Program-made: the position numbers and the translations under genes
DNA from: an archaeon
GTDB taxonomy: Archaea; Nanobdellota; Nanobdellia; Pacearchaeales; GW2011-AR1
DNA: 64,000 nucleotides
NCBI GenBank assembly: GCA_018651605.1
Contig: JABIDS010000009.1
Location: 19,966-83,965 of the forward strand
Direction: 5' to 3'
Notes under the pieces: model-generated
Told to the model about the DNA's origin: nothing
What the model saw: only the letters and a program-made list of their open reading frames with translations
The model's database searches: none
Part shown: positions 1-54,174 of the stretch, piece by piece
Layout of the letters: the number at the start of each line of letters is the position of its first letter
Position numbering within the stretch: the first letter of the stretch is position 1

Positions 1-99
1 ATTTAAGAATTTATATGAAAATCCTTTGCCTGTTTGGGATAAAGGTCCTGTTTGGGCTTGATGTGAGTTATTTTTGTAGGGGTAATTTGTTTGTTATTA

Positions 100-142: not shown

Positions 143-3100
143 ATGGTGTTGGAAAAAAAAGATGTGATTGGACATATAGAATTGACTTATATTTTGTTTG
201 TTCTTTTGTTTGTTTTGGTAGGGTTTTTGTTTAGTTTTGATTATGTTGTTGAGGAGTTTGTTAAGGAAGGTGTTGAGAGTGAGGGGGTTGGGGTTTTGGA
301 GGGTGGAGTGGAGGTTGGTGTTGGTTCTGAGGGTAGTGGTTTAGGGAGAGATGGTTTTGATGGTGATGAAAAGAAGAGTGGTTTTTTTAAGAGGATTTTT
401 GAGGGGTTGTTTGGTAAGGAGGAGGTTTTGTTTAGTCCTCCATCTATTGACTCTGTTTCTCCATTGAATGGATTATCAAAAACTGGTGAGGAACAAATAT
501 TTACTATAGAATATTCTGATCCTGAGGGATGGGAAGATTTAATCTATGGTTATGTTATTTTTGGAGCAGATTCATCTGATAGTAGGATTTTTTTAGAGTA
601 TAGGCATACTACAAAATTCGGATTAGTTAATGATAAAGGGATTATGACTTATCATTGTGATCCAGAATCAGATAATTTTTTATCTAATTCTTATGTAAAA
701 TTAGATTGTTCTAAATCTTTTGTTTCTGGTTCTGGAGATACTATGACTTTAACTTTAGCTTTAACATTTAAAGAGCCTTTTATTGGAAATTGGAAAATAC
801 TTTTAAGGACAAAAGATATTTCAGATAAAGATAAGGGTAAATGGGTGCCAATGGGGGATTGGGATGTTGAGGAAGGGGAGGTAATTATTGTTCCTGTTAA
901 ACCTCTTCCTCAAATGCGGGCACTTTATGGAGGGATTAATGAATTAAGAATTGGAGAGGGTGGGATAGATGCATACACTGATATGTTTAGGAGTTATGGA
1001 ATTAATACATTTATAACTAAACATTCTGGATTAAGAAATAATTTTATTTATGCTGATAGGTATCCAAATTCTCCTGAAAATTTTTATGAATCAATTTTAG
1101 ACCAGGCTGAGTGGGCTGAACAAAAAGGATTTGTTTTCTTTCCAATTATTGATTTTGTTCATAGGGTTAATGATCCTGATGATTTGGATGGGGATGAGAT
1201 TACAGTTTCTTCCATTACAGATAACTATGTTGTTTTTAGTGATGGTAGTGCGGGTTCACAAGTAACTCCTTTTGATGAGACTTATTGGGATTATTTAACT
1301 GATATTGCAGTGAGATTAGCAAGACTTTCAGAAAATTATGGCAAATATCGGGTTGATGGTTTAATGTTTGATTTTGAATTGTATAAAAGTGTAGAATTTG
1401 GAGAACCAAGAAAATTTGATAGGACTTTTGGTTTTGAAGATTCTACTTTTAATAATTATTTGGTTGATAGAGGTTTAGTTGAGTTGAATAGTCCTCCTAA
1501 GGAGTCTAATCAGAGGGCTGAAAGATATGATTGGTTAATAGATAATGGGAGATGGACTGATTATTATTCTTATCTTGAAGATACAATAGAAAAACTTGCA
1601 GAAAATATGAAGAGTGAGGTAAGAAAGGTTAATCCTGATTTCGTGTTAGGATTTTATCCTACGCCAGAGCCGCTTTATTTAATAGATATCCTTGATGGTT
1701 TTGGAAGTGAGGATGATCCTGCGGTTTTATTGGATACTTTTACTTATGCAATATCTTATATGGGATATTCTTATGGGGGAGAAGTAGTTCCAACAGGGAT
1801 TAGTCGTAATAGATTGCCTTCTGGTTATTTTGATGTAACTAAAAGATATCATCCTGAAAGAAATAAACCTGCGTATGCTTATTATCTTGGAGGAACAATA
1901 GCTGCTGCTTATGATCCTTTGGATTATGAAAATAAATTATATAATATTGGAAATGATGGAAATGGTTATTGGATTTATCAGGCTACTTTTTTTCTAAATG
2001 GTTTTAGGCCGGATTTACCGGGATGGGGATTACCTTGTAATAATGGGATTCGTTCTTTTAATTGTCCGAATGCTGATGCACATCAAGGTGCTGTTGACCA
2101 TTATTTGAATGAGATAAAAAATGCTAATTTAAGGTTGGGATGGGAGCCGTGTGTTCTTTCAAATGGAGGTGATGAAATATGTGATAATAAAGATAATGAT
2201 TGTAATGGAAAGGTTGATGATGGTGATTTGTGTGATAATGGAAATTATTGTGATGGTGTTGAAACTTGTTCTTCAGGAAGTTGTGTTGATGGTAGTGCTG
2301 TTGTATGTAATGATGGAATTGATTGTACTGATGATTTTTGTGATGAAGTAAATGATAAATGTGATGTAGATGAGTCTTCTTCTAGTTGTGGATGCCCTAA
2401 TGGTTTGGATTCAGAGTGTAGTAATGATGATGTTTGTGATGGTATTGAGAGTTGTAATACTGAAACTTTGGTTTGTATTGATGATGTGGATTTGGATTGT
2501 GATGGGAGTGATGTTTGTATTGATTATTCTTGTGACGCTGTTTTAGGTTGTCAAGAGAGTTTTAATAGTGCTGATTGTAATGATGGGGTTGATTGTACTT
2601 TGGGAGATAAATGTAATTTGGGTGATTGTTCTGGAACTCCTTATGATAGTGAGTGTGAATTTTTTTGGCAGTCTTGTAATCCTGTTTCTGGTTGTGAGCA
2701 GGCGAGTTGTAAGGATTGTAAGGATTGTGATACCTGGCTTGGTAGTTGTAGTTATAATGAATGTCATAATGAATGTGATTGGGGAGATGGTTGTTATTTT
2801 GAGAAGGATCCTTTGGGTGATGATTGTGTTCCATTAAGTGAAGGTTGTTCTTCTGTTGGTAGTTGTGGAGATTATTCTGTTGAGGAGTGTGTTAGTGATT
2901 TATGTGATAAGGCTCCTGTTGGTGGGAATGGTTGTGAGTTAGGTGAAAATAGGTTTGTAATTATGTCTTTTAGTCAGTATTTAGATGATTTTGCTGATGA
3001 ATGGCATCAATTAGTTCAACAGACATATATTCAAAATGAAAAAGTTATTAATAAGATATATATTGACGGTGTGTTAAGAAATACTGAAAAGTTTGAGGAT

Positions 3101-6100
3101 GCAGGAGGGTTGGTTAATAATTATGCTAATCTTAAGTTAGCTGTTGATTTGAATGGAGAAGTTGATGATGTTAAAATTTGGAATAGGGCTTTGAGTTCTA
3201 GTGAAGTTTTAGATGATAATAATGGTGTTTTGGTTTCTGATTCATTGATTGCACATTATAATTTTAATGAGGGTAGTGGGGTTGGAGTTGTGGATTCTGT
3301 AGGAGATAATGATGGTGTTCTTAATGGGGATGCAGTGAGAATTGATGGAGGAATTATTGATATTGGAACTTCAGGTTATATTGAAATTAAAGAAACTTCG
3401 GTGATGGATATTTCATTAACAGATGAGTATACTATTTCTGGTAGGTTTAAGTTATCTTCAGAAGAAACTGCAGGCAGTAGATATTTTTGGTCTGATTATT
3501 CTTGGATGAACTCAGGATTTATTGCTATAATTTTTCCTCGTGATCAGAAATTTTATTATTATAATACACATAAAGATTTGAGTGTTTGTGTTGATGCTAG
3601 TTATTGTGGGGATGGTGTTTGTGGTTTTGAGTCTGGAGAGAATTGTGGTGGTTGTGAGGAGGATTGTGGTTGTTCTGGTGAGACTCCTCATTGTTCTAGT
3701 GGGAATTGTGTTGAATGTGAGAGGCCTAGTGATTGTGATGATGGATTATATTGTAATGGTGTTGAAAGTTGTGTTGATGGAAGTTGTGTTGATGGAAGTG
3801 TTATTAATTTTGATGATAGAGTTGGTTGTACTATGGATAGTTGTGATGAAGTTAATGATGTGATTGTTAATGTTGTTGATGATGGTTTATGTCAGAATGG
3901 AGATTGGTGTGATGGTGTTGAGAGTTGTGACGCTGTTTTGGATTGTCAAGATGAGGTTGATCCTGATTGTAGTGATGTTTATAGTTGTAGTGTTGATAGT
4001 TGTAGTGAGGGGTCGGTAGTTGGGGATAATTTAGGTGTTTGTGATTATGATACTTCTGGTTGTGGATGTTTAGTTGATGGTGATTGTGATGATTCAAATG
4101 ATTGTACTGATGATTTTTGTAATGCTCAACGTGAATGTGATAAGACGAATAAGATTAATGGTTTTGTCTGTGATGATGGGAATTTATGTACTGAGGATGA
4201 TAAATGTTCTGTTGGGGTTTGTAGTGGTTCTGCTAGGGATTGTTCTTCTTTAAGTGATCAGTGTAATGATGGTGTTTGTGATTTAGATGATGGTTTGTGT
4301 AAGGCAGAGGTTAAGATTAATGGTTTGAGTTGTGATGATGGTTTGTTTTGTAGTGTTAGTGATGTTTGTGGGAATGGTGTTTGTGGTGGTTCTTCTAGAG
4401 ATTGTTCATCCTTTAATGATCAGTGTAATGATGGTGTTTGTGATGATGTTTTGAATTTGTGTAAGGCTGATGCTAAGGTTAATGGTTTGGATTGTGATGA
4501 TGAGGTTGATTGTACTGTTGAAGATAAATGTAGTTTTGGGGATTGTAAGGGTCGTGTTGATGATAATGAATGTGAAGATTGGGAATCTTGTAATCCTGTT
4601 TCTGATTGTGGGCAAGTAACTTGTTCAAGTTGTAAGGAATGTGATAGTTGGCTTAGTGGTTGTGATTATAATGAATGTCATAATGAATGTGATTGGGGGG
4701 ATGGATGTTATTTTGATTCTAAGTTTGGTGAGAATTGTGTTTCATTAGTTGATGGTTGTTCTTCTGTGGATAGTTGTGAGGATTATTCTAGTGAGGAATG
4801 TGTTAGTGATTTGTGTGGTAAGGCACCTTCTTCAAATGGGTGTGAACTTGATGGAGATGATTGTGTTGCTGTTAGTTATTGTGGGGATGGTGTTTGTGAT
4901 GTTGGTTCTGAAGATTGTAGTAGTTGTGTTGAAGATTGTAGTTGTTCTGGGAATGTTGATTTGAAGCAGTGTTCTAGTGGAAGTTGTGTTGAATGTTTGG
5001 AGGTTGATGATTGTGATGATGATAAGAGTTGTACTAATGATTTGTGTACAAATAATGTTTGTGTTTTTCCTGAGATTGATTCAGATGGAGATGGTTATGG
5101 TGCTTGTTTAGGTATAGGGTTTGATTGTGATGATGGGGACCGGGATGTTAATCCTGGGGTTGAAGAGAGTTGTAATAATGTTGATGATGATTGTGATGGT
5201 TTGACTGATGAGAGTTTGAGTCAGGCTACTAGTTGTGGTGTTGGTTTGTGTTTAGGTAATGTTGGTGTTGAAACTTGTTCTTTAGGTAGTTGGATTGGTG
5301 ATACATGTGATGAAGATGATGGTGCTGTTGATGAAGTTTGTAATAATGCCGACGATGATTGTGATGGTTCTACTGATGAGGGTTGTGCTTGTTCATTAGG
5401 TGATACTCAACCTTGTGGTAGTGATGTTGGAGAATGTGTTGCTGGTTCTCAAGTTTGTGATATTAATGGTATTTGGGGGGATTGTGTTGGTGGGCAAGGA
5501 CCTGTTGTTGAAATTTGTGATAATAAGGATAATGATTGTTCTAATGGGATTGATGATGGCTTGAGTAGGGGAACAAGTTGTGGGGTTGGGGCGTGTTCTG
5601 GGAATAGTGGGGTTGAAACTTGTTCTGCGGGTGTTTGGGGAAGTGATACATGTGATGATAAAGCTGGTGCTGTGAGTGATGCGAATTGTAATGGTGTTGA
5701 TGATGATTGTGATGGTTCTAAGGATGAAGATTATGTTTCGGTTGATACAAGTTGTGGGGTTGGGGAGTGTTTGGGGAATAGTGGTAGTTGGAGTTGTGTG
5801 AGTGGGAATGAGGTTGATAGTTGTGATGAATATGCTGGGAAGGTTGAAGAGAGTTGTGATGATGAAACTGGTTTTGATGGTTTGGATAATAATTGTGACG
5901 GTAATGTTGATTTAGATTGCGAATCTATTTGTGATAAAGATGGAGATGGTTATACAAATAATTTAATTTGTTTACCTGCTTGTTTAATTTATGGTTGGAA
6001 TTGTTTGAGTTTGGATTGTGATGATTCTAATGTAAATATAAATCCTAGAGAGGATGAATTATGTAATGGTATTGATGATGATTGTGATGGTGGAACAAGT

Positions 6101-7975
6101 GATGGAGTTGATGAGGATTGGTTTGGAGATGAGACAGGGTGTGGGGTTGGGGAGTGTGCTGCGGTTGGGGAACAATTATGTATAAATTCTCAAAAAACAA
6201 ATACATGTCAAGAAGGTGTTGCAGAGTTAGATGATAAGAGTTGTGATGGGAAGGATAATGATTGTAGTGGTGATGCTGATGAAGATTATATTTCTTTAGT
6301 TACTGATTGTGGTATTAATGAATGTTTGAGAATCGGGATAACATCATGTTCTAATGGAGAGGTTTTGGATTCTTGTGTTGTTGGAACTTCTGAACTAGAG
6401 ATTTGTGATGGTAAGGATAATGATTGTGATGGGAAATTTGATGAGGGTTGTGATTGTTTATTAGGTGATAGTCAACCTTGTGGGAGTGATGTTGGTGAAT
6501 GTGTTGTAGGTTTGCAGACTTGTAATATTAATGGTAATTGGGGAGATTGTGTTGGTGGTCAGGGTCCTGTAGAGGAGATTTGTGATGGTTTGGATAATAA
6601 TTGTGTTGGAGGGGTTGATGAAGGTGGAAATAGTTTATGTGATGATTCTATTGATTGTACTGATGATGTATGTAATGGTGTGAGTGAATGTTCTTATACT
6701 GAGAATCATGGTCTTTGTGAGAATAATTTATTTTGTGATGGAGAGGAAAGATGTAGTATTGATGAAGAGAAATGTATTTCTATAAAGACTCCTAATTGTG
6801 AGGATGTTTTTTCATGTACTGATGATTCTTGTGATGAGGGTTTGGATAAGTGTGTTAGTGATGAAAATTCTGGGAATTGTTTGACTGGGCAGATTTGCGA
6901 TGTTCTTAATTTTGTTGCTCCAACTGGTTGCGGTTATGTTGAGAATTGTGTTGATAAAGATGGTGATGGGTTGTATGATTATGATGAGAATTTTTGTTCG
7001 GAGGGTGTTGATGAGTGTTCTGGAACAAATAAGGGTTATTTTGTTAGGAATCCTTTTAAGTTGAATGATTATTTGCCTAAGGTTGGAAAGTTTAATATTC
7101 CTTCGGTGAATGCAGGAAATATTTTGAATTTTGAGAATTTTAGTGTTGAGTATAATGGGACTAAAATTAATTTTGTTGATAATGTTAGTTTGGTTAAAGT
7201 GAATGCTAGCGGTTGTTTTGAGGTTATTAATTTAAGTGAGATTGTTTTGTTTGAGGATGGTAAGTTGAGTGTGAATACGAGTTTGATGGATGGATTTGAT
7301 AAGCCTGCACTGTTGAAGTTTAGTGGAATTAATTTTGAGAACCCTCAGATTTATAGGGATGATGTTAAGTGTGTTGATTGCGAGATTATTAATTATTCTA
7401 AGGGAGAATTTTTAGAGGTCATGATTACTGGTTTTGTTTCTTATGATGTTAAGGAAGGGGCTTATTGTGGGGATGGTGTTTGTAATGGTGGTGATAGTTG
7501 TTCTAATTGCGTTGTTGATTGTGGGGTTTGTTCTGCAGGTGAGGGAGGTATTCTTGGAGGAGGTTCTGGGAGTTCTGGTGGTGGTGGTGGTGGGAGTCCT
7601 AGTGGTCCTAGTGGTCCAAGTGGAGGAAATCCTAGTGGTTTAAATATAAATCAAAGTAGTGTTGTAAATGTTTCTTATCCTAGTAGTTGTGTTGAAACTT
7701 GGTCTTGTAAGGATTGGAGTGAATGTAATGAGAGTGTTCAGAGAAGGGAGTGTTCGGATGTTAATGATTGTGGGAGTGAGGAGTATAAGCCTATTTTGGA
7801 GAAGGAATGTGTTGAGAAGAATAATGTTATAAAACTTGCTGTTGCATTTTTTATATCTTTTTTTGTTTCAGGAATAGTTGCTGTTTTGATTGTTGTTTAT
7901 TTTAAGATTAGGGATAGAAGGAAGAGTGTTATTAGAGATTTGCATAAGAATGGTTATCATGGGTTTAAGTGGTGA
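143..7975 (+). CDS. giant cysteine-rich cell-surface protein (2610 aa) with MopE-like CDxxDNDCDG metal-binding-type repeats, LamG/ConA-like blocks and C-terminal TM anchor
   Basis: Uninterrupted 7.8 kb ORF. N-terminal hydrophobic segment LTYILFVLLFVLVGFLFSF. Hundreds of Cys in repeated CxxxC and CDNKDNDCDG..DE units. Two blocks with a LamG-like signature (IYIDGVL...VDDVKIWNRALSSSEV). Gly/Ser/Pro linker GGGSGSSGGGGGGSPSGPSGPSGG. C-terminal TM LAVAFFISFFVSGIVAVLIVVYF followed by basic KIRDRRK. Confidence 0.85.
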   Translation: MVLEKKDVIGHIELTYILFVLLFVLVGFLFSFDYVVEEFVKEGVESEGVGVLEGGVEVGVGSEGSGLGRDGFDGDEKKSGFFKRIFEGLFGKEEVLFSPPSIDSVSPLNGLSKTGEEQIFTIEYSDPEGWEDLIYGYVIFGADSSDSRIFLEYRHTTKFGLVNDKGIMTYHCDPESDNFLSNSYVKLDCSKSFVSGSGDTMTLTLALTFKEPFIGNWKILLRTKDISDKDKGKWVPMGDWDVEEGEVIIVPVKPLPQMRALYGGINELRIGEGGIDAYTDMFRSYGINTFITKHSGLRNNFIYADRYPNSPENFYESILDQAEWAEQKGFVFFPIIDFVHRVNDPDDLDGDEITVSSITDNYVVFSDGSAGSQVTPFDETYWDYLTDIAVRLARLSENYGKYRVDGLMFDFELYKSVEFGEPRKFDRTFGFEDSTFNNYLVDRGLVELNSPPKESNQRAERYDWLIDNGRWTDYYSYLEDTIEKLAENMKSEVRKVNPDFVLGFYPTPEPLYLIDILDGFGSEDDPAVLLDTFTYAISYMGYSYGGEVVPTGISRNRLPSGYFDVTKRYHPERNKPAYAYYLGGTIAAAYDPLDYENKLYNIGNDGNGYWIYQATFFLNGFRPDLPGWGLPCNNGIRSFNCPNADAHQGAVDHYLNEIKNANLRLGWEPCVLSNGGDEICDNKDNDCNGKVDDGDLCDNGNYCDGVETCSSGSCVDGSAVVCNDGIDCTDDFCDEVNDKCDVDESSSSCGCPNGLDSECSNDDVCDGIESCNTETLVCIDDVDLDCDGSDVCIDYSCDAVLGCQESFNSADCNDGVDCTLGDKCNLGDCSGTPYDSECEFFWQSCNPVSGCEQASCKDCKDCDTWLGSCSYNECHNECDWGDGCYFEKDPLGDDCVPLSEGCSSVGSCGDYSVEECVSDLCDKAPVGGNGCELGENRFVIMSFSQYLDDFADEWHQLVQQTYIQNEKVINKIYIDGVLRNTEKFEDAGGLVNNYANLKLAVDLNGEVDDVKIWNRALSSSEVLDDNNGVLVSDSLIAHYNFNEGSGVGVVDSVGDNDGVLNGDAVRIDGGIIDIGTSGYIEIKETSVMDISLTDEYTISGRFKLSSEETAGSRYFWSDYSWMNSGFIAIIFPRDQKFYYYNTHKDLSVCVDASYCGDGVCGFESGENCGGCEEDCGCSGETPHCSSGNCVECERPSDCDDGLYCNGVESCVDGSCVDGSVINFDDRVGCTMDSCDEVNDVIVNVVDDGLCQNGDWCDGVESCDAVLDCQDEVDPDCSDVYSCSVDSCSEGSVVGDNLGVCDYDTSGCGCLVDGDCDDSNDCTDDFCNAQRECDKTNKINGFVCDDGNLCTEDDKCSVGVCSGSARDCSSLSDQCNDGVCDLDDGLCKAEVKINGLSCDDGLFCSVSDVCGNGVCGGSSRDCSSFNDQCNDGVCDDVLNLCKADAKVNGLDCDDEVDCTVEDKCSFGDCKGRVDDNECEDWESCNPVSDCGQVTCSSCKECDSWLSGCDYNECHNECDWGDGCYFDSKFGENCVSLVDGCSSVDSCEDYSSEECVSDLCGKAPSSNGCELDGDDCVAVSYCGDGVCDVGSEDCSSCVEDCSCSGNVDLKQCSSGSCVECLEVDDCDDDKSCTNDLCTNNVCVFPEIDSDGDGYGACLGIGFDCDDGDRDVNPGVEESCNNVDDDCDGLTDESLSQATSCGVGLCLGNVGVETCSLGSWIGDTCDEDDGAVDEVCNNADDDCDGSTDEGCACSLGDTQPCGSDVGECVAGSQVCDINGIWGDCVGGQGPVVEICDNKDNDCSNGIDDGLSRGTSCGVGACSGNSGVETCSAGVWGSDTCDDKAGAVSDANCNGVDDDCDGSKDEDYVSVDTSCGVGECLGNSGSWSCVSGNEVDSCDEYAGKVEESCDDETGFDGLDNNCDGNVDLDCESICDKDGDGYTNNLICLPACLIYGWNCLSLDCDDSNVNINPREDELCNGIDDDCDGGTSDGVDEDWFGDETGCGVGECAAVGEQLCINSQKTNTCQEGVAELDDKSCDGKDNDCSGDADEDYISLVTDCGINECLRIGITSCSNGEVLDSCVVGTSELEICDGKDNDCDGKFDEGCDCLLGDSQPCGSDVGECVVGLQTCNINGNWGDCVGGQGPVEEICDGLDNNCVGGVDEGGNSLCDDSIDCTDDVCNGVSECSYTENHGLCENNLFCDGEERCSIDEEKCISIKTPNCEDVFSCTDDSCDEGLDKCVSDENSGNCLTGQICDVLNFVAPTGCGYVENCVDKDGDGLYDYDENFCSEGVDECSGTNKGYFVRNPFKLNDYLPKVGKFNIPSVNAGNILNFENFSVEYNGTKINFVDNVSLVKVNASGCFEVINLSEIVLFEDGKLSVNTSLMDGFDKPALLKFSGINFENPQIYRDDVKCVDCEIINYSKGEFLEVMITGFVSYDVKEGAYCGDGVCNGGDSCSNCVVDCGVCSAGEGGILGGGSGSSGGGGGGSPSGPSGPSGGNPSGLNINQSSVVNVSYPSSCVETWSCKDWSECNESVQRRECSDVNDCGSEEYKPILEKECVEKNNVIKLAVAFFISFFVSGIVAVLIVVYFKIRDRRKSVIRDLHKNGYHGFKW

Positions 7976-7989: not shown

Positions 7990-8370
7990 ATTTTCCACCA
8001 CCCACGGAAAGCCGGTTTCACCTTTCCCTTTCCGTGCCGTTGCAGTCTTAAAAAGTTGTTAGAGGGTTTATTTATTCAGAGGAGTTTTCTTTGGTTGTTG
8101 TTAAGAGATTGGTTTGGTTATAGATGGGAAAGGTGTTTTGTAGAGAGTTTAAGATTTAGGAGATTCAGAGAATTAAAAATTCTCTGACTTAGAAAAATAA
8201 GCTATAAGCCCTATTATTTTTCTAATTTCAGTATTTAGCGGAGCGCCCTGACTAAGTCGGGTGCGAGAGCGATATAAAATAAGTTATGAGCTGAAGGAGA
8301 ATGAATCATGGATGGAATAAATGAACCGAAAGAGAATGAATCTATGCGAGCGATAGTGAATGAATCTAAT
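7990..8370 (+). repeat. interspersed repeat family A, copy 1 (structured intergenic element, ~380 bp, contains 9-bp-arm palindrome and an inverted GAC-loop hairpin)
   Basis: Shares blocks (cGGAAAgccg; caCTTTCCCTTTCC; ttgttagaGGGTTTATTTATTCAGAGgag; ATAAGCCC; aaaTAAGTTATGAGC; GAATGAATCTAtGCGAGCG) with copies at 11735-11885 and 56345-56630. Palindrome cagagaatt/aattctctg at 8166-8188. Segment gcggagcgccctgactaagtcgggtgcgagagcg resembles the reverse complement of the hairpins at 45560 and 46799. Confidence 0.7.
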
Positions 8371-8377
8371 CTTTTAA

Positions 8378-10426
8378 TCACTCAATCCTACTAATCCCGT
8401 TATCTTTTTGTATTCTTATTATGTTATCTACAAAACCTTCAATTTTTTGTTCATGAGATACTAGGATGAGTTGTTCTGTGTTTAGTTGATGAAGGACATC
8501 TCGCATTTTATCTAATTGTTGGTCTGAGAATCCATCTGTTGGTTCGTCTAGGATGACTAGGTTTGATGTTTTAATGTTGCTTAATAGGGAATTGATGACT
8601 TGGTTTAAAGAGAGACGGTATGCAAGGGCTATTGCTGTTCTTTCTCCTCCGCTTAAGAATGAATAATCTAATTCGTAATCTTGTTGAGTGATTACTGGTG
8701 AAAAGTCGTCATCTAGCGAGGCTGTTAAGGAATCCGAGACAAGTGTTGAGAACCAATCTGAGAATAATGTTGAGAATTCTTGTTTTAAACTTAACATTAC
8801 TTGTTTTTCTGTGAAAAGGATGAGGTCTAGGAATTTGTTTGAAATCCAAGATTCAATGTGTTTGATTTTTTCTGCCTTGGTTTTTATTTCTTGTTTCTTT
8901 TGTATTTTTTCCTTGACTTCATTAATCTGTATTCCTAATAGTTGAATTTCTTTATTTGTTTCTGCTTTTTTTATTGCTAATTTTTCTTGATTTGTTTTTG
9001 TTTGATTTAGTTCTTCTTTTTTTGTTTTGTAAATTGTTTCATATTTGTCGTATTCTTTTATTGATTTTTCTATTGTTTCTATGTGTTTTTTTAATGTCTC
9101 TGTATCTTCATTTGTTGCTTGCATTTGTTTTTCTAAGTCTTGTATTCTTTGTTGTTTTTCTTTGATTGTTTCTAATTTTACTTTTCTAATTTCTAAGTCT
9201 GATTTTCTTTTTTTGTATTCTTCTATTGAATTTTTTATTGATTCTAATTGTTTTTCTAAATATGTTCTTTGTTTTGTTAATTGATTTATTGATTCTTGTA
9301 ATTGTTTTATTTCTTGGCTTGTTTTTTGAGATATATTTTGTTTGTAATTTTCTGAAACTTCTTGAAGGCAGGTTGGACAATTTTCTAAGTGAGATATTTT
9401 GTTTTGTAGGCTTTCTGTTTCTTGTTTTTTTGAATCTTGTGAATTTATTTTACTAACTATTTGTATGAATTCTTTTTCTAATTCTTGATGTTTGGATTCT
9501 TGGAATTTTACTCTTTGGTCTAATGCTGTGTATTCTCCTTCGTCGAATTTTAATTCTTGAGTTTCTTTTAATTGATATTGAATATTGCTAATGTTATTTT
9601 TTGTTGAAGTTATTTGTTGAGATTTTTCTCTTATTAAAAGTTCTGATTTTGATTTTTCGTTTTCTAATGTTTGTTTTTGGTTTATTTTTTCTTGAACTTC
9701 TTCAAGTGCTTTTTCTTTTTCTTTTGATTTTTCTAATGCTTGTTCGTGTTGCTGTGTTAATTGTGTTTTTAATTTTTTTAAGTCTTCTAAGTTTTGTTTT
9801 TTGTTTTCTAGGTTTTGTTTTTCTTCATCAATGTCTTGAGTAATTAATTCAAAAAGTCTTGCTTTTTCTCTTAATTTTGAAGTTAATATTGATAAATTTT
9901 CTTCTATTCTCTTATATTTGTCGATTCCAAAAACATGTCTTAATGTGTTTAGTCTTATGTCTCCTGGTTCTAGGATTATTTGTTTCATTTCTTCCTGGGG
10001 AGTGTAGACTGTGAATTTGTATAGAAGGTTTGTTTTTTTTGCGAATTCTGGAGGGTAGTTTAGTAATTTTAGAATTTTTGATTTTATTTCTGTTACAGAG
10101 CCTTCGAATTTTTCTTGGTTTATTGTTATTGATGAATAATCTTGTGTTACTGATTTTTTTGTTTTTTTAAGGGACCTTTCTATTATTATCTCTTTATTGT
10201 CTATTTCTAAATGTAGTTCTACTTTTGCTTGTTCTTGATTGGTTTTGAGAAGTGATGTTCCTTTTTGTGAGGGCTGTAGGCCGAAGAGTGCGAATTCTAT
10301 TGCAAGGAGTATTGTTGTTTTTCCTGCTCCTATGTCTCCTGATAAAAGTGTTGAACCTTGTGGGAATGTTATTGTTTGGTCTTCGTAGCTTCTTATGTTT
10401 TGGATTTGGAGGGATTTTAGTTGCAT
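8378..10426 (-). CDS. rad50: DNA double-strand break repair ATPase Rad50 (compact, 682 aa)
   Basis: Walker A GDIGAGKTTILLAIEFALFG. Long coiled coil with zinc hook CPTC. ABC signature SGGERTAIALAYRLSL. Walker B LVILDEPTDGFSD. Start overlaps the mre11 stop. Confidence 0.9.
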   Translation of the reverse strand: MQLKSLQIQNIRSYEDQTITFPQGSTLLSGDIGAGKTTILLAIEFALFGLQPSQKGTSLLKTNQEQAKVELHLEIDNKEIIIERSLKKTKKSVTQDYSSITINQEKFEGSVTEIKSKILKLLNYPPEFAKKTNLLYKFTVYTPQEEMKQIILEPGDIRLNTLRHVFGIDKYKRIEENLSILTSKLREKARLFELITQDIDEEKQNLENKKQNLEDLKKLKTQLTQQHEQALEKSKEKEKALEEVQEKINQKQTLENEKSKSELLIREKSQQITSTKNNISNIQYQLKETQELKFDEGEYTALDQRVKFQESKHQELEKEFIQIVSKINSQDSKKQETESLQNKISHLENCPTCLQEVSENYKQNISQKTSQEIKQLQESINQLTKQRTYLEKQLESIKNSIEEYKKRKSDLEIRKVKLETIKEKQQRIQDLEKQMQATNEDTETLKKHIETIEKSIKEYDKYETIYKTKKEELNQTKTNQEKLAIKKAETNKEIQLLGIQINEVKEKIQKKQEIKTKAEKIKHIESWISNKFLDLILFTEKQVMLSLKQEFSTLFSDWFSTLVSDSLTASLDDDFSPVITQQDYELDYSFLSGGERTAIALAYRLSLNQVINSLLSNIKTSNLVILDEPTDGFSDQQLDKMRDVLHQLNTEQLILVSHEQKIEGFVDNIIRIQKDNGISRIE

Positions 10427-11631
10427 TATATTTCCTCACTAAAATTTATATCCAATACCTTACCTAATCCTAAAAGCAATCTTGATTCAAAAGTTGCTGA
10501 TTTTTCGTCTTCTTGTTTTTCTAGGGTGAGGGCTTCCATGAGGGGGGAGATAAGTTTGTTGTTGTTTGAGGGGTTTTCTTTTTCATAGGTTTTAATTAAG
10601 GTTTCTTCTATTTTTTCTTTGTTGTGGTTTGGGTCGCTGAATTCTATTTGTAGGTCTTGTCTTTCTACTTCAAGTTTTGAGGTGTTTTTTAGAAATGAAT
10701 ATGCATTTTGTTTTTCTATGAAGTCTTGTATTTCTTGAAATTTTATGTCTGTGTATTTTCCTTGTTTTAATATTCCGAAAAGTTTTAAGAGGATTATTTT
10801 ATCTTTGAGTTCTCTTTTTTCTAGTTCTTTGATTATTTTTTCTGTTGCTTTAATTGCATTGTCAATTTCTATTTTGATTAGTTCTACTGGTTTTATTTTT
10901 ATTTCTTTTTTTGTTACTTTTGTGTAACCTGCGACTTCTATTATGTAAAATGCTCCTTGTTTTAGTTCTTCTAGTTCTTTGAAGTTGTTTGGGAATGTTG
11001 GTCCTCCGTAAACTGCAGGTTTGTTGTTTACTTCTTGGTTGAAGTCTATGTGGATGTGTCCTAAAGCGTAGTAGTCTGCTTGAGGGAGTTGGTCTAAGGG
11101 AATTGAGTCAATTGGTAGATTTTGTGCAGCTTCTTTGACTGTTGTGTGGAGCATCAGTATTCTGAAGTTTTCTGAATATGGCTGATTTATTTTTATTTTT
11201 CTTAATGATTCTACTTCGAGTCCTGATTTTTTTCCAGGGTATCCATAGATGTAACATTCCTTGTCTCTTATTGGTTCTAGTGTTATTTCTTGAGTTTCTT
11301 GGTTTTCTTGATATTTGCAGATTTGACAGAATCCTGCTTTTTCTAGGACGTCTAGGAATGTTTTTCCTGAGACAGAATAATCATGTGAGCCTGCGATGAT
11401 GTAGGATTTTATGTTTGCGTCTTTTAGTTTTTTGAATTCGCTGAAAGCGAATTTTAGGGTTTCTATTGATGGGAATGCTGAATCAAATAAGTCTCCTGCG
11501 AATAATATGAAATCTACTTGTTCTTCTATTGATGTATTAATTGCATAGGTGAATGATTGTCTGTTTAGTTCTTGTAGTTCTGGTTGGCGCCATCCTCCTA
11601 AGTGTGAGTCTGCTATGTGTGAGAATTTCAT
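10426..11631 (-). CDS. mre11: DNA repair nuclease Mre11 (calcineurin-like phosphoesterase)
   Basis: Motifs MKFSHIADSHLG, GDLFD and AGSHDY are typical of Mre11/SbcD. Operonic with rad50. Confidence 0.9.
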   Translation of the reverse strand: MKFSHIADSHLGGWRQPELQELNRQSFTYAINTSIEEQVDFILFAGDLFDSAFPSIETLKFAFSEFKKLKDANIKSYIIAGSHDYSVSGKTFLDVLEKAGFCQICKYQENQETQEITLEPIRDKECYIYGYPGKKSGLEVESLRKIKINQPYSENFRILMLHTTVKEAAQNLPIDSIPLDQLPQADYYALGHIHIDFNQEVNNKPAVYGGPTFPNNFKELEELKQGAFYIIEVAGYTKVTKKEIKIKPVELIKIEIDNAIKATEKIIKELEKRELKDKIILLKLFGILKQGKYTDIKFQEIQDFIEKQNAYSFLKNTSKLEVERQDLQIEFSDPNHNKEKIEETLIKTYEKENPSNNNKLISPLMEALTLEKQEDEKSATFESRLLLGLGKVLDINFSEEI

Positions 11632-11734
11632 TTTAAGGTATTTAATCGCTTTGCGATTAAGGTGTTATTTACTTTAATCATTTGGATTAAAGTTATTTTA
11701 AATTTTTAAGGATTGTTGTTGTGTGGTTTGTTTT

Positions 11735-11885
11735 GGGATCAATTCCCCTGGCGGAAAGCCGTGCTTCGCACTTTCCCTTTCCTCCCTTTTGTCTTGGTAA
11801 ATTGTTAAAGGGTTATTTTATTCAGAGAATCTATAGATTCTCTGACTCGTAAAAACGAGCCATAAGCCCCATCGTTTTTCCGATG
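11735..11885 (+). repeat. interspersed repeat family A, copy 2 (short version, with perfect 10-bp-arm palindrome)
   Basis: Blocks gcGGAAAGCCG, CACTTTCCCTTTCC, ttggtaaattgttaaaGGGTTATTTTATTCAGAG, palindrome cagagaatct/agattctctg (11823-11844), then gactcgtaaaaacgagccATAAGCCCC. Same order as in copy 1. Confidence 0.7.
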
Positions 11886-12069
11886 AAGATGAGTTTTCCT
11901 TGGTTTTTAAGGATTAATAGGTATTAGAAGGTTTATTTCATATCGATTTACCCTTTGAAAGGTGATTTAGTATATAAGTGTTGCGTTACTATTTTATAAT
12001 TAGTATATATTTGTGTTTGTGGAAGATTTGATATGTTTGGATAATCTTTTTATAATAGGTTTTCTTTAG

Positions 12070-19361: not shown

Positions 19362-19470
19362 GGGGTGTTGGGAAGGTTAAGTAACTTGGTTCGCTTTTGC
19401 TCACAACTTATTTTATGGTTCAACTGCCGGCTTTCGCCTGGCAGTTTCTCTAATTTTTCTTAATATTGTG
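19362..19470 (+). ncRNA. candidate structured ncRNA / repeat (family B, copy 1): GGGGTGTT…TTGGTTCGC…hairpin aactgcc[GGCTTTCGCC]tggcagtt + T-tract
   Basis: ~85% similar to 27330-27470. Hairpin 19422-19446 has fully compensatory stem changes relative to the second copy, with a conserved loop GGCTTyCGCC. Followed by taattttt. Confidence 0.5.
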
Positions 19471-23773: not shown

Positions 23774-23829
23774 AGATTAATTTATTTGAAACCAAAGATT
23801 AAAAAAGGCTTTTTTTCTTATTAATTTAT

Positions 23830-23904
23830 GGCTTGTTAGCTCAGTCTGGTTAGAGCACTAGACTCTTAATCTAGGTGTCGGGAGTTCAAATCTCCCACAG
23901 GCCA
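23830..23904 (+). tRNA. tRNA-Lys (anticodon CTT), 75 nt, no encoded CCA
   Basis: Manual cloverleaf: acceptor GGCTTGT/ACAGGCC; D arm GCTC-AGTCTGGTTA-GAGC; anticodon arm CTAGA-CTCTTAA-TCTAG; T arm GGGAG-TTCAAAT-CTCCC; discriminator A. Confidence 0.85.
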
Positions 23905-23975
23905 TTTATATCTTAACACTAAATCTAAGATGTAGAAAATTATGAAGGATTAAATACATTTAGATATTTTGTAGC

Positions 23976-24719
23976 CTACTTGATCTTCTCACCTGACTCC
24001 CAAAGCATATAAAAATATTTTTTTAAACTATCAGCTAAAGAATCATTTTTAATCCATAGTGATAAATATTTATCTCCTTCAACAATCCTTATAGTAACAT
24101 CACTATCATCAATAATAGTAAATTTTGTAGTAATAAGAGGAATTTTTCTAATTTCAGCATTAATTTTCTTCCAGACTTTTAATTTATCGCTAGTTGCCTC
24201 CTCATCACTTGTTAAAATCTTAATCTTGACATTATCTTTAGCATTTTTTTCATAAGAATCGATATGAGGTTTATATGTTGAAAGTTCAGAAATTGTCAAC
24301 CATTCCCTTCTAACATTCTTATGAAGACTCACAGAAAGATTAAGATAATTCTTATAACCTTCAACAATTTTTATTTTATCAATCACTTCATCCTTGTTAA
24401 TCATAGCAAGTTCCCCTAATTCATTCATAATCCTGTCAGAATTATTAATAAAATTATCTAGTTCTTTTTCTTTTTTTTCTTTTAAGTAATTAAAGATTAT
24501 CTTAGGTGCAACTGAAACGAACTTTTTCGGACTACCGTCATACTTTTTTACAAATCCTTTGGCAGTTAAAGACTCTAATACTGAATATATCTTACTATTT
24601 GGAATTAAAGATTCCTTTGATATCTTATATGCAGTTGATATCCCATTTTTTATTAAATATATGTATGCCTTTGATTCATTAGTTGTCAAACCAAATTGCT
24701 TTAATTTCTCCATAATCAT
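23976..24719 (-). CDS. TrmB-family transcriptional regulator
   Basis: N-terminal wHTH LKQFGLTTNESKAYIYLIKNGISTAYKISKESLIPNSKIYSVLESLTAKGFV matches the TrmB signature. 247 aa. Confidence 0.7.
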   Translation of the reverse strand: MIMEKLKQFGLTTNESKAYIYLIKNGISTAYKISKESLIPNSKIYSVLESLTAKGFVKKYDGSPKKFVSVAPKIIFNYLKEKKEKELDNFINNSDRIMNELGELAMINKDEVIDKIKIVEGYKNYLNLSVSLHKNVRREWLTISELSTYKPHIDSYEKNAKDNVKIKILTSDEEATSDKLKVWKKINAEIRKIPLITTKFTIIDDSDVTIRIVEGDKYLSLWIKNDSLADSLKKYFYMLWESGEKIK

Positions 24720-24772
24720 AACTACCCAAGGGGGTTACTATTATATAAATATTTCTATTTATTATTTTTTTC

Positions 24773-25462
24773 ATGTCAAAAAAACTTATAAACCAACATG
24801 AAGAATTAAAAGAACAAAATATACGTAAACCACTTTATCCTTGGGCTCCAGAAATATATAATAATATGATGAACCCAATTTCACTTGAACCAATTAAAGA
24901 AAGAGCATGGAATCACTTTCTTTGGAACCTTGGTTTAACAATTACCTGGCCTATTACTGCACCCGGTTCATTTATTTGGGCCATGCAAAGAAATCTAAGA
25001 GGTAAGGGGCATTTTTCTGATGGATATATTGTTCTAGGATGTTTAACAGCACCCTACATCTTAGCTACAGAATCTAAAAGTTTCTTAACCAAAAGAACTG
25101 TAGCATTAAAATTTTCAAATATTGATGAATTATTAGAAGAAGAAACTATTTTAACAAAACCTGATGGAATAAATCCGGGGATTCGTTTTAGTACAAGAGA
25201 TAGAGGTAAAGACAGCCCTTATAGATTTGGAGACTCTTCTTCGAATACTGATAGATATGGATTTCTAGATTTAATTTTCCCAGATAACTTAGCTTTAGAT
25301 GATTTTTCAGCAATGTATTATGCAACTGCTAATAGAGAAAATCCTGGAAATCTGTATTTAGATTGTGAATATTTTCTAAAAGTAAATCCAGATGATACAA
25401 GAAGACTTTATGAAGAATTTGAAAAAGTGAGAAAACCTGGAGCAAATGATTTAAGAAAATAA
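24773..25462 (+). CDS. hypothetical protein
   Basis: 229-aa ORF between the two tRNA-Lys copies. No recognisable motif. Confidence 0.45.
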   Translation: MSKKLINQHEELKEQNIRKPLYPWAPEIYNNMMNPISLEPIKERAWNHFLWNLGLTITWPITAPGSFIWAMQRNLRGKGHFSDGYIVLGCLTAPYILATESKSFLTKRTVALKFSNIDELLEEETILTKPDGINPGIRFSTRDRGKDSPYRFGDSSSNTDRYGFLDLIFPDNLALDDFSAMYYATANRENPGNLYLDCEYFLKVNPDDTRRLYEEFEKVRKPGANDLRK

Positions 25463-25603
25463 GTAAAGTTAGTACTATCAACTGTTTAAGATAATTTTTT
25501 CTAAAATAGACACTGTGTCATATATAATCCAAAACTCTTAATCCAACACATATATCAATAAGAAAATTAAAAAACCATAAATACCTCATAAATTCATACT
25601 CAT

Positions 25604-25678
25604 GGCTTGTTAGCTCAGTCTGGTTAGAGCACTAGACTCTTAATCTAGGTGTCGGGAGTTCAAATCTCCCACAGGCCA
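25604..25678 (+). tRNA. tRNA-Lys (anticodon CTT), second identical copy
   Basis: 75/75 identical to 23830-23904. Confidence 0.85.
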
Positions 25679-25782
25679 TTTATGGCAGAGATTTTCACTC
25701 CAAGGAGTTTCCATAAAGGATGACTCAAAGGTTATTTGAGCCGCAAATCTCATCAGGCCATTTAAATTAATGTTAATAATTA

Positions 25783-26229
25783 TTAATCTCTTGAAATTAT
25801 TGAATTGAAGTCTAAATCATATGTTTTTCTTTGAATAACCTCAGAAGTAGTATCCGGATGTTTCTCCCTTGCATCTGAATAAATTACAGATAATTGATTC
25901 ACAAATTCATCATAATTTAATACTATTTCAGAACCTATTATATTTGGTACTCCAGATACAAAAGATAAGAATTGAAAATGATTTCTATAATTATCATTTC
26001 CTCTCATAGCTTCTTCAAACTCATTAGGAGAATTTCCGATAGTATCAACTGATTGAAGGACTTTATGAGCAAATTGTCCCACTACGGTTTCAATAGATTC
26101 ATTAATCCTTCTAATCTCTGATTCTTGTTTTTGAGTTACCATACGGATAATCTTCAGATATTTACTATATAAATCCTTCGATTTTAACAAATATACTAAA
26201 AAATAATCACTGTGCCATATATAATCCAA
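25783..26229 (-). CDS. hypothetical protein
   Basis: 148-aa ORF immediately followed by a tRNA-Lys 3' fragment. Confidence 0.4.
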   Translation of the reverse strand: MDYIWHSDYFLVYLLKSKDLYSKYLKIIRMVTQKQESEIRRINESIETVVGQFAHKVLQSVDTIGNSPNEFEEAMRGNDNYRNHFQFLSFVSGVPNIIGSEIVLNYDEFVNQLSVIYSDAREKHPDTTSEVIQRKTYDLDFNSIISRD

Positions 26230-26231
26230 TA

Positions 26232-26273
26232 CTCTTAATCTAAGTGTCGGGAGTTCAAATCTCCCACGGGCTA
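26232..26273 (+). other. tRNA-Lys 3'-half fragment (anticodon loop to acceptor 3' strand; att-like remnant)
   Basis: ctcttaatctaagtgtcgggagttcaaatctcccacgggcta vs tRNA ctcttaatctaggtgtcgggagttcaaatctcccacaggcca. Preceded by a ~40-bp direct repeat (cactgtgYcatatataatccaaWactcttaatc) also present at 25507-25548. Confidence 0.75.
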
Positions 26274-26294
26274 TTTTTATTTTTAGAAATATTA

Positions 26295-27329: not shown

Positions 27330-27470
27330 GTAGCGGGGTGTTACTACTTGTTTTTTGTTGGATTTTGGGAGATTGGTTCGCCTTCGGCTCACGGCTTATT
27401 TTATGTCAGATTGGATGGCTTCGCCAACCCAATCTTCTAATTTTTTTGATAGTGTGAATATTTTATCTAG
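27330..27470 (+). ncRNA. candidate structured ncRNA / repeat (family B, copy 2): hairpin agattgg[ATGGCTTCGCCAAC]ccaatct + T-tract
   Basis: Collinear with 19362-19470: GGGGTGTT; TTGGTTCGCCTTCGGCTCAC; CTTATTTTATG; hairpin 27408-27435 with covarying stem; ctaattttttt. Confidence 0.5.
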
Positions 27471-38120: not shown

Positions 38121-38228
38121 TGCGGTGAAGATTTAATTGGTTGCGGTCTCCCAAGCCTGACTTTGTCAAGGCTCTCCGACTTGCAGTTTTGATAATGTTG
38201 AATATTTTATCATGAGGTTATGAGTGGT
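38121..38228 (+). repeat. hairpin repeat family C, copy (stem agcc-TGAC-UUU-GUCA-aggct) followed by conserved aatattttatcatgaggttatgagtggtt box
   Basis: ~80% similar over ~90 bp to 41040-41140, with compensatory stem substitutions. The TTTTATC box could be a TATA element. Confidence 0.65.
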
Positions 38229-38272
38229 TTAGTAAATAAATATTTATATATGTAATTAGGATGATTATTTAA

Positions 38273-38773
38273 ATGGAATCTAATCTTGCAACCATTTATG
38301 TATGGGAAAAAAGAAATTTGGATGTAGATAATTTATTATTTGTTCTTGGAGGTAAAAAGGCTCCAACATATACTGAACTTAAATCACAATTTGATCGTAA
38401 TCATAGAAAACCTATTTCACTTAGGCATTATTCAAATGAATTTGAAATTTATCAAAGTATAGCAGGAACCGAACCTCTTGTTAAAGATCCTCATTATACT
38501 GGAGATGTCTCTCCTTTTTTAACTTTTGATTTAGAAAAAAGATTGAAAAAATTAGAGTTGTCATTACCTGAACATGAACTTCAATTTAATCCTCGTGAAA
38601 GCAATGATTATAAAAGTGTAGATTTAGCTAGGGTTGGAGGATTAGCATTATATTTGGTTGAAAGTTTGAGTGCTAAGGATGTTTTAGCAGTTAATGGGAC
38701 AGATATTGAAAATGGGGTAATCTATGCTTCTCCTGGAATTGAAAGAAAAGTTTCTGATTCTATTCTTATTTGA
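38273..38773 (+). CDS. hypothetical protein (166 aa)
   Basis: A-rich coding strand (foreign-like). Flanked on both sides by copies of the attttatcRtgagRttatgagtggtt box. Confidence 0.45.
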   Translation: MESNLATIYVWEKRNLDVDNLLFVLGGKKAPTYTELKSQFDRNHRKPISLRHYSNEFEIYQSIAGTEPLVKDPHYTGDVSPFLTFDLEKRLKKLELSLPEHELQFNPRESNDYKSVDLARVGGLALYLVESLSAKDVLAVNGTDIENGVIYASPGIERKVSDSILI

Positions 38774-38803: not shown

Positions 38804-38849
38804 TCTTTAATATAATTAAATTTATAAGCCTAGAAAATGCACATAGGTT

Positions 38850-54167: not shown

Positions 54168-54174
54168 TTTTAGG

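Follow-up and report, generated by a model that had tools for sequence, protein, structure and literature searches.

Hairpin-carrying modules dispersed in a DPANN archaeal genome, with two assemblies beside mre11-rad50

DPANN archaea have very small, gene-dense genomes, which makes 400-nt non-coding mosaics conspicuous. In a 64-kb stretch of DNA from an archaeon of the Pacearchaeales (hereafter the window), look-alike intergenic elements stand on both sides of the mre11-rad50 operon, and a third lies elsewhere. What kind of sequence are these elements, and does their position beside genes of double-strand break (DSB) repair have a meaning?

The three look-alike copies of the preliminary description are real; they lie where they were placed, all on the + strand, and their similarity is far above chance. 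The core TTGTTARARGGTTWWTTTWTTCAGAG matches at 8056, 11802, and 56408, with 0 matches expected in shuffles, and a profile search scores the copies at E values of 1e-24 to 1e-26, a circular figure since the profile was built from these same copies. No other tRNA-free intergenic gap of the window is as large as the three that contain them (402, 438, and 417 nt). Copy 1 occupies the convergent gap between the gene for a 2610-aa surface protein (stop 7975) and rad50 (stop 8378), copy 2 the divergent gap 5' of mre11 (ATG 11631), and copy 3 is located 3' of a DUF2238 gene (stop 56332).

What had been taken for a single element of 150-400 bp with an ordered set of shared blocks is, in each copy, a mosaic of smaller modules (Table 1). 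All three copies share just the 26-nt core; the other blocks occur in two copies each, GGAAAGCCG and CTTTCCCTTTCC being exact in copies 1 and 2 only, ATAAGCCC confined to the same pair, and AAATAAGTTATGAGC and GAATGAATCTAWGCGAGCG to copies 1 and 3. The modules are a C-rich hairpin (A5), a core of 26-45 nt (A), and a hairpin unit, B or C. The basic unit is an imperfect hairpin of 22-30 nt with a lower stem, a 1-2-nt bulge in the 5' arm, a 3-bp top, a loop of GAA, GAAA, or TAA, and an apex that is frequently GCGAAGC or GCGAAAGC, followed in turn by CTGAC, ATAAAATAAG, and YYRTGAGC. The B unit is collinear with the C unit; it lies inside the A core in copy 2 and 85 nt 3' of it in copy 1, and is missing from copy 3. 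Units stand alone, in both orientations, or are joined with A5 and the A core into mosaics of 150-400 nt. The C unit of copy 1, whose bulged hairpin is topped by GAC-TAA-GTC, scores 31 bits (E 1e-4); that of copy 3 (56487-56572) scores 91.5 bits, and the C' repeats there span 56555-56625.

Table 1. Modules and composite elements in the 64-kb window.
Feature	Position	Strand	Composition
Copy 1, composite	7990-8377	+	A5 hairpin, A core, spacer, B unit, H-type C unit, GAATGAATC repeats
A5 hairpin of copy 1	8003-8036	+	CACGGAAAG ... CTTTCCGTG, 9 bp; inner stem GGT-TTC-ACC
A core of copy 1	8053-8097	+	GTTGTTAGAGGGTTTATTTATTCAGAGGAGTTTTCTTTGGTT
B unit of copy 1	8163-8225	+	Palindrome 8166-8186, CTGAC, AAAAATAAGCTATAAGCCC, perfect 12-bp stem 8189-8200/8214-8225
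C unit of copy 1, H-type	8221-8309	+	GCGGAGC, bulged hairpin 8243-8264, GCGAGAGC, ATATAAAATAAGTTATGAGC
C' block of copy 1	8300-8370	+	Three degenerate GAATGAATC(T/A) repeats
Copy 2	11738-11908	+	A5 hairpin (11750-11785), A core 11799-11829 and 11887-11908, B unit insert (11820-11886)
Solo C unit (w19)	19382-19470	-	Other stem, GCGAAAGC top; 60 bits
Solo C unit (w27)	27369-27456	-	98 bits
H-type hairpin unit	45554-45587	-	GCGGAGC-hairpin-GCGAGAGC, without ATAAAATAAG tail
Fourth A core, decayed	45596-45646	+	81% identity to copy 1 over 42 nt
H-type hairpin unit in ScpB	46793-46825	-	Within coding sequence (N-terminal low-complexity extension)
Copy 3, composite	56338-56650	+	A5 (56352-56391), A core (56405-56445), spacer, C unit, C' repeats

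The count of three was too low. With the solo and partial pieces of Table 1, the tally is about ten units in the window, and eight bulged hairpins, distributed over both strands, share one architecture. The motif GCGNAGC occurs 9 times against 1.6 expected and GCGNNAGC 5 times against 1.35; 9 of these 14 motifs fall within the elements proper and 2 more in the H-type unit within ScpB. Both motif types form unusually stable single-strand DNA mini-hairpins (PMC13037366). The repeats are a larger family of small hairpin-carrying modules dispersed in this genome, beyond the three copies.

The palindromes reported for copies 1 and 2 exist, but not at the same position. That of copy 1 has 9-nt arms and an AAA loop (fold z-score -4.6) and stands 85 nt 3' of the core; that of copy 2 (11822-11845) has 12-nt arms and no loop (z-score -5.9), and its left arm is the CAGAG of the core. 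The suggestion of a conserved hairpin or dyad is borne out, as palindromes and hairpins are maintained through compensatory changes. In the C-unit stem, 11 of 16 pairs have changed on both sides, and 89% of alignment cells are paired versus 23-43% in slid controls, in an alignment of only six sequences, two of them close relatives. B-unit stems also differ by compensatory changes, as does the A5 hairpin of copies 2 and 3, judged from sequence. The shape of the hairpins is conserved and their sequence is not. A long-range pairing of the A core with the C region in copy 1 (8065-8077 with 8315-8327) is not kept in copy 3. An Rfam search of the window returned only tRNAs, the best sub-threshold scores being 12-23 bits (E at least 0.3); in agreement with the earlier remark that the elements match nothing recognised, this is a real, unannotated, hairpin-rich repeat family.

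Outside this genome, the C unit recurs at about 85% identity in a related Woesearchaeota MAG, SRP104257_co1_44, whose Mre11 is 78% identical. It lies there at non-syntenic sites, together with a piece of A5, between unrelated genes (loci L012 and L021). A C-unit identity of about 85% between genomes with Mre11 at 78% argues for selection on its sequence beyond the need of a purely selfish repeat, and the preservation of blocks like the 18-nt ATAAAATAAGTTATGAGC is better than neutral decay would allow. Searching GTDB genomes with the C-unit pattern gave two true homologues and four chance singleton families, as expected; a bacterial repeat family that also matched is unrelated, its common letters being those forced by the pattern. 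The A-core pattern gave 0 matches in GTDB genomes, collections that do not hold the host genome, 0 in IMG/VR, and two in JGI metagenomes that are chance. The A5 pattern had 0 matches in IMG/VR, and blastn against phages and plasmids found nothing. The family is dispersed, modular, structurally constrained, and common to one related genome at non-orthologous sites.

At orthologous sites, copies 1-3 are absent (loci L001, L005, L008, L031, L035, L038, and L040). They are missing in all five relatives examined, the family-carrying MAG included, and all three lie at points of synteny break, indel, or rearrangement. Such presence/absence polymorphism at orthologous sites is a mark of MITEs. The functional link to the DSB-repair operon that had been suggested is not supported by the same comparison, which for mre11-rad50 covers L001/L002, L005, L008, plus, as gene maps, the contigs that encode P0002 and P0006 (Mre11 identity 75-80%). 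Direct orientation of the two copies on both sides of the operon speaks for modules, regulatory or recombinational, that are dedicated to it, yet neither flank has a copy in any of the five related operons, where rad50 abuts the next gene or other genes occupy those sites. Even the family-carrying MAG has none at its mre11-rad50 locus (L005), though it has units at L012 and L021. Further, a conserved mre11 promoter block (11686-11732) sits between copy 2 and the gene, and the third full copy and the solo units adjoin unrelated genes. A dedicated module is scarcely credible and already mostly refuted; the placement around mre11-rad50 looks accidental and is not to be read as DNA-repair regulation.

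The best explanation, to which we give an even chance, is that interspersed palindromic units form a lineage-specific family, akin to REP/BIME elements or MITEs, that has no particular connection with DSB repair. Copies 1-3 would be local assemblies of short palindromic repeat units that have spread or been exchanged between intergenic sites, a mobility suggested by their distribution. They may be moved by an enzyme, encoded at another place in the genome, that recognises single-strand hairpins, or by recombination and template switching between short stretches of homology, ATTCAGAG being an example. We propose that they are retained since a stable hairpin does no harm in a gene-poor gap or is of slight benefit there, for instance in 3'-end protection or as a transcription barrier between converging genes. 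The two mosaics beside mre11-rad50 would then be a by-product of where the variable DNA of this genome lies. Interspersed repeats are supported by the extra solo and partial units on both strands, one of them intragenic; orientation relative to neighbouring genes is not consistent. The proposed MITE reading fails on its defining features. Terminal inverted repeats were found neither by local alignment of the ends nor by inverted-repeat scans of copies 1-3 and the L012 element, and direct repeats at the borders do not rise above chance matches of 5-6 nt. A GTAG/CGTC tag is absent from the palindrome ends, which are flanked by TTAGA/CTGAC or GCGGAGC/GCGAGAGC. In some copies CGTC is present, but at the loop. 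Pfam searches of the window and of the 16 kb covered by L012 and L021 detected neither a transposase nor an integrase or a RAYT-like gene.

The main rival takes the 86-nt C unit, perhaps together with the rest of the A-to-C mosaic, for a family of small structured RNA genes, which we consider possible but on the unlikely side; of the structured ncRNA proposed earlier, this leaves the C unit as a candidate and no other module. In such an RNA, a bulged hairpin with a GNA/GNRA loop would be joined by CAUAAAAUAAG as a single strand and by a mini-hairpin in which G.A pairs stand in tandem (GU-GA-GC-GAA-GC-GA-AC). It would account for the strong hairpin covariation, for the identity between genomes at non-syntenic sites, and for the finding that, in most copies, one and the same strand has three G.U pairs and purine-rich loops. 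An upstream flank, ..AAAATA..CAC..TATCAA..ATTAGA, is kept in four copies, and a weak promoter-like site puts the start at the copy 3 hairpin. The promoter of this genome, AAAnnTTTAWATA, starts 34-35 nt before the ATG, and real promoters have a median of 9 bits on its position weight matrix (PWM). Against an RNA, copy 1, w19, L012, and L021 have no motif match of at least 5.5 bits 5' of their C units, and the only match 5' of the w27 unit would start about 40 nt before its hairpin. The count of G.U versus A.C on the model-fitted alignment, 3 versus 2, does not decide the matter. A common terminator and an Rfam match are lacking, one related hairpin lies within a coding region, and the alignment is the small one described above. 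By the same PWM, neither copy 1, on either strand, nor the L012 element contains a host-type promoter, and the elements as a whole show none consistently. The A core was rejected as a promoter: its + strand score, like that of the ATAAAATAAG block, is under 5.5 bits, and in copy 2 the reverse strand of the core reaches 6.4 bits.

A reading of the modules as cis-acting elements at the 3' ends of ordinary genes, duplicated from one gene end to another, is quite improbable; they would be hairpins with U-tracts that terminate transcription or stabilise the RNA. The upstream gene on the same strand would have A5 as its element, and the gene on the opposite strand the reverse complement of C (mini-hairpin, CTTATTTTATG, hairpin, T-run). 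The distances fit: A5 begins 10-25 nt past the stop codon in copy 1, copy 3, and L012, and reverse-complement C lies 9-30 nt past a co-directional stop at 19361, L012 508, and L021 3056, and about 80 nt past rad50. The hairpin 19422-19446, the one unit in which a G+C-rich stem with a T-run lies downstream of a co-directional gene, scores as a classical terminator, and related hairpins at 38145 and 41062 come after the stop codons of a topoisomerase and a RadA-like gene. However, terminator-like hairpins are not enriched in the window (7 versus 8.7 expected, 12 versus 10), orientation in tandem gene contexts is split 2 versus 2, and copy 2 and the unit at 45554 sit in divergent promoter gaps where no gene ends. 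Conserved non-T blocks such as GTGAGCGAAGCGAACC are unnecessary for terminators, and relatives have gaps of 0-50 nt at the same sites. It is very improbable that A5 and the A core are the remnant of a small protein-coding gene. One frame (..FPF..C..KLLEGLFIQR..) is open and similar in all three copies, with one indel of a length divisible by three, but the conserved part has no start codon in copy 3, JGI gene calling places no gene in the gaps adjoining copies 1 and 2, a search with the three-way alignment among 5.8 billion predicted proteins returns nothing up to an E value of 10, and stop codons are naturally scarce on a T- and G-rich strand. The elements hold no called or conserved ORF; a small ORF from the ATG of CTTATTTTATG is present in the two closest copies only. 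Several other candidates were rejected. A replication origin does not fit a cumulative GC skew that climbs without a turn across the window, and no orc1/cdc6 gene adjoins any copy; a DGR template/variable repeat is excluded by non-coding copies, differences that are not adenine-specific, and an absent reverse transcriptase; and box sequences or the 3-nt bulge of C/D-box, H/ACA, and K-turn RNAs are absent. Integron attC sites are imperfect inverted repeats, 57-141 nt long, that carry R''/L''-L'/R' boxes (GTTRRRY) and stand in a cassette array beside intI (PMC9668308). The hairpins here are 22-30 nt, their stem base is without GTTRRRY/RYYYAAC, the units form no co-oriented array, and the window has no tyrosine recombinase.

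Should the interspersed units prove mobile, they would mark where these genomes vary and rearrange, and would point to a putative hairpin-processing enzyme. If the 86-nt unit is an RNA, it would be among the very few lineage-specific structured RNAs known in DPANN. That hairpin-CTGAC-ATAAAATAAG-GUGAGCGAAGCGAACC is a functional nucleic-acid signal specific to a Pacearchaeota/Woesearchaeota clade, as a new small RNA class or a single-strand DNA signal, is an unlikely reading. As a DNA signal, GCGAAGC-type mini-hairpins could be a putative priming or processing site for a hairpin-recognising enzyme; this would be an archaeal counterpart of REP-RAYT with a putative partner protein. In the searchable literature, no description of REP/BIME-like interspersed palindromes was found for archaea or this group.

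Among known systems, REPs typically exceed 100 copies per genome. The REP/BIME elements of Enterobacteria and Pseudomonas are bulged, imperfect, extragenic palindromes of 20-40 nt, often between converging genes, found in both orientations, in mosaics with other short conserved motifs, and occasionally within genes (PMC3733652). The present units are likewise short, imperfect, extragenic palindromes in both orientations and in mosaics, with an occasional intragenic unit. They differ in their DPANN host, in having no GTAG/CGTC tag at the hairpin foot and no RAYT gene in the DNA examined, and in a hairpin coupled to a conserved 3' tail, CTGAC-ATAAAATAAG-YYRTGAGC, that is missing from REPs. The haloarchaeal PATEs derive from IS200/IS605 and have subterminal hairpins and no terminal inverted repeats (PMC3119063). 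Like MITEs and PATEs, the elements are non-coding, 150-400 nt long, and present or absent among related genomes; the lack of terminal inverted repeats is shared with PATEs, and together with the lack of target duplication, of TnpA/TnpB nearby, and of a single consensus in the mosaic interior it sets them apart from the MITE/PATE class. Rickettsia palindromic elements are 100-150 bp long and carry a CGTC tag. They share the in-frame intragenic palindrome, here that in ScpB; the unit here is 33 nt, with one intragenic copy seen. Mini-hairpins of the GCGAAGC and GCGAAAGC types occur at single-strand initiation sites, which are single, primase-recognised sites in phage or plasmid origins (PMC13037366). 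The same heptamers and octamers cap the hairpins at 27418, 19430, and in L012, and GCGGAGC and GCGAGAGC border the H-type hairpins; whereas the known examples are single origin sites, those described here belong to a dispersed chromosomal family.

The window host is a Pacearchaeota-like DPANN archaeon, and its nearest Mre11 homologues carry the labels Pacearchaeota, Woesearchaeota, or Nanoarchaeota. Its genome is compact: the 51 intergenic gaps of at least 40 nt account for just 7.2 of the 64 kb. The three repeat elements, denoted copies 1–3, occupy exactly the three largest tRNA-free gaps (402, 438, and 417 nt). GC skew is +0.2 to +0.7 in most 2-kb bins of the window (1–64000) and is positive even at minus-strand genes; the cumulative skew climbs across the window with no sustained reversal, a strand asymmetry far above usual prokaryotic values. 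The left end is dominated by a 2610-aa protein (143–7975) of Cys/Asp-rich repeats with weak MopE-like matches, and the internal DNA repeats of its gene make up the bulk of the window's direct-repeat families.

The plus strand carries three occurrences of a 26-nt core, with none expected by chance. The pairwise-shared blocks and two palindromes of the preliminary description were also found; however, no block other than the core is shared by all three copies, and the palindromes of copies 1 and 2, thought to occupy the same place, do not correspond in position. Comparing all intergenic DNA with itself and aligning the copies by hand resolved them into modules (see table). In the A5 hairpin, two G-C pairs of copy 1 become A-T and T-A in copy 3, and two outer stem pairs are switched in copy 2. 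The B stem changes from TTAGAAAAATAA/TTATTTTTCTAA in copy 1 to TCGTAAAAACGA/TCGTTTTTcCGA in copy 2, with fold z-scores of -4.6 and -5.9, respectively. B and C align collinearly, and B is therefore a variant of the C-type unit. Degenerate GAATGAATC repeats lie 3' of the C unit in copies 1 and 3.

Repeat copies, modules, and further units of the family in the window
Feature	Location	Strand	Bits	Description
Copy 1	7990–8377	+		intergenic
Copy 2	11738–11908	+		intergenic
Copy 3	56338–56650	+		intergenic
A5 stem	copy 1			C-rich hairpin, CACGGAAAG/CTTTCCGTG
A5 stem	copy 2			C-rich hairpin, GGCGGAAAG/CTTTCCtCC
A5 stem	copy 3			C-rich hairpin, GAAAAT/ATTTTC
A core	copies 1–3			TTGTTAGAGGGTTTATTTATTCAGAG GAGTTTTCTTTGGTT
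Fourth A core	45596–45646			decayed
B unit	copies 1, 2			perfect palindrome, CTGAC, A-run, AAGCYATAAGCCC, T-run pairing back with the A-run
C unit	copies 1, 3			bulged hairpin, CTGAC, ATAAAATAAG, YYRTGAGC, mini-hairpin with GA/GA internal loop
C unit	27369–27456	-	98
C unit	56487–56572	+	91.5
C unit	19382–19470	-	60
C unit	8221–8309	+	31
H-type unit	45554–45587	-		copy 1 subtype of C hairpin
H-type unit	46793–46825	-		copy 1 subtype of C hairpin, inside ScpB reading frame

The arrangement of these modules differs between copies. B splits the A core of copy 2 (TTCAGAG, B, GATGAGTTTTCC), lies 85 nt further on in copy 1, and is missing from copy 3, which means that the copies are mosaics and not diverged forms of the single element first proposed. 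If the units insert, any target preference could involve ATTCAGAG, for example. Nor is the family confined to three members, given the further C units, H-type hairpins, and fourth A core. A scan of the window with a C-unit covariance model yielded four significant copies, with no other hit rising above noise. In copy 1, the C hairpin is of the subtype GCGGAGC-hairpin-GCGAGAGC, which recurs in the H-type units. One of these sits in the N-terminal low-complexity extension of ScpB, an extension that a related ScpB (locus L040) is without. This lineage-specific extension (46649–46933) also holds tandem repeats of 24-nt period, with HITPLPSTPITPSP present twice.

The hairpins share a common design, which includes a lower stem of 5–9 bp, a 5' arm with a bulge of one or two bases, and a 3-bp top of GAC/GTC, GGC/GCC, or AGC/GCT closed by a GAA, GAAA, TAA, or AAA loop. 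Several tops are GCGAAGC or GCGAAAGC, known (PMC13037366) as single-strand DNA mini-hairpins of extraordinary stability. The window contains GCGNAGC and GCGNNAGC at about five times the expected frequency; 9 of the 14 occurrences are within the elements proper, and 2 more are in the ScpB H-type unit. Purine-rich loops share one strand in seven of eight hairpins. In the C-unit alignment, 89% of cells are standard pairs, against 23–43% with the partners slid, both sides have changed in 11 of 16 stem pairs, and the covariation score was reached by no shuffle, which is good rather than overwhelming evidence because the alignment has six rows and was fitted to the covariance model. G.U and A.C cells number 3 versus 2 in this model-fitted alignment and 3 versus 0 in the hand alignment.

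Other repeats and duplications are present in the window. A second small family of G+C-rich hairpins (..GAC-TTN-GTC-A..; 38130–38250, 38772–38826, and 41050–41140) has a design that mirrors the C-unit hairpin. These hairpins lie directly 3' of topoisomerase and RadA-like stop codons and are followed by TATTTTATCRTGAGGTTATGAG, which also occurs 5' of two tandem paralogous 166-aa genes. The window has two copies of tRNA-Lys(CTT) that share an identical 82-nt block (23828–23909 and 25602–25683), with a 53-nt 3' tRNA fragment at 26231–26283. This region looks as if tRNA-Lys had been the site of successive integrations; among the genes between the tRNA copies are one for a TrmB-like regulator and ORFs that match no Pfam family, and no integrase was recognised across 23828–26283. 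Directly 3' of tRNA-Ile, at 63134–63300, a 51-nt (96%) and a 29-nt (100%) direct duplication could be att-like. The gap before a ParA-like gene (54168–54315) contains an internal direct repeat (54189–54260 and 54239–54315, 78%) and a 26-nt palindrome at 54212–54237.

Beyond the window, the A-core pattern had no true match in GTDB genomes, JGI metagenome contigs, or IMG/VR. The C-unit pattern found two true homologues, loci L012 and L021 of the Woesearchaeota MAG SRP104257_co1_44, a genome with 78% Mre11 identity to the window. The L012 unit is ~85% identical to the window copy at 27369–27456, and its strand also carries, ~200 nt upstream, GTTTCACCTTTCCCTTTTCGTCCC, a 23/26 match to the A5 of copy 1; the A5...C arrangement is thus common to both genomes. 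L021 is a solo C unit. Proteins flanking both loci are without homologues in the window, so the sites are not orthologous. No unit is present in the other relatives sampled, L005 of the same MAG and L008–L010, L031–L038, and L040, ~100 kb in all. Another highly conserved repeat of ~85 nt, GGYTAACGATAAAATAAGCGGTGAGCGAAGCGAATCCGCTTCATTGATTGGTTAGG.AAAAGATTCACTCCGCCG, occurs in L014–L017, L019, L022–L026, and L028–L030, often at contig ends, in MAGs labelled 'bacterium Yes70-xx', Desantisbacteria, and Tangfeifania. It has no Rfam family, and it was rejected as a homologue of the archaeal unit, the common letters being only those imposed by the search pattern.

Comparison of gene neighborhoods places copies 1–3 at the borders of variable DNA. 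In L005 and L008, the next gene follows rad50 after 2–5 nt, and the gaps upstream of mre11 (113–272 nt) have only the mre11 promoter block in common with the window. In the closest relative (80% Mre11 identity), the copy 1 site and the copy 2 site are each occupied by two additional genes. Relatives have 0–51 nt between the DUF2238 gene and the next gene downstream; at this place the window has copy 3 and two genes absent there in relatives. The functional tie to double-strand break repair, suggested by the bracketing of mre11-rad50, is removed, since this operon is unbracketed even in the MAG that carries the family.

A promoter matrix was learned from 55 upstream regions of the window. At most ATG codons the motif, AAAnnTTTAWATA, starts a constant 34–35 nt upstream, implying that the mRNAs are for the most part leaderless. 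An exception is mre11, with its motif 75 nt upstream of the gene and a perfect palindrome, TTAATCGC-AAA-GCGATTAA, in the leader. No site of at least 5.5 bits is present in copy 1 or the L012 element, neither the A core nor ATAAAATAAG reaches that score on the plus strand, and copy 3 has one weak site before its C hairpin. Classical terminator-like hairpins are not enriched in the window. The reverse complement of the C unit often starts just 3' of the stop codon of a co-directional gene, and in tandem gene contexts two units are sense and two antisense. A predicted-protein search found nothing resembling the product of the open frame that spans A5 and the A core.

The best fit to these observations is a family of interspersed palindromic units built into mosaics. 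Judged by sequence comparison, the C unit is more strongly conserved from one genome to the other than a purely selfish repeat would need, and for this reason a small RNA or single-strand DNA signal is kept as an unlikely but live reading; an Rfam search agreed with the preliminary description in finding no known RNA family. The proposal of a MITE fails, as no terminal inverted repeats or target-site duplications, the features that define MITEs, were found. A Pfam search of the window and the surroundings of the L012 and L021 units found no transposase or integrase. Classical REP elements differ as well, in that the window family is without the GTAG tag and no RAYT was seen in the window or around L012 and L021. 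The family of palindromic mosaics is thus a variant of the interspersed-palindrome kind and not a member of either class. Its pattern is like that of REP/BIME elements and Rickettsia palindromic elements, but here in a DPANN host and with a unit design of its own.
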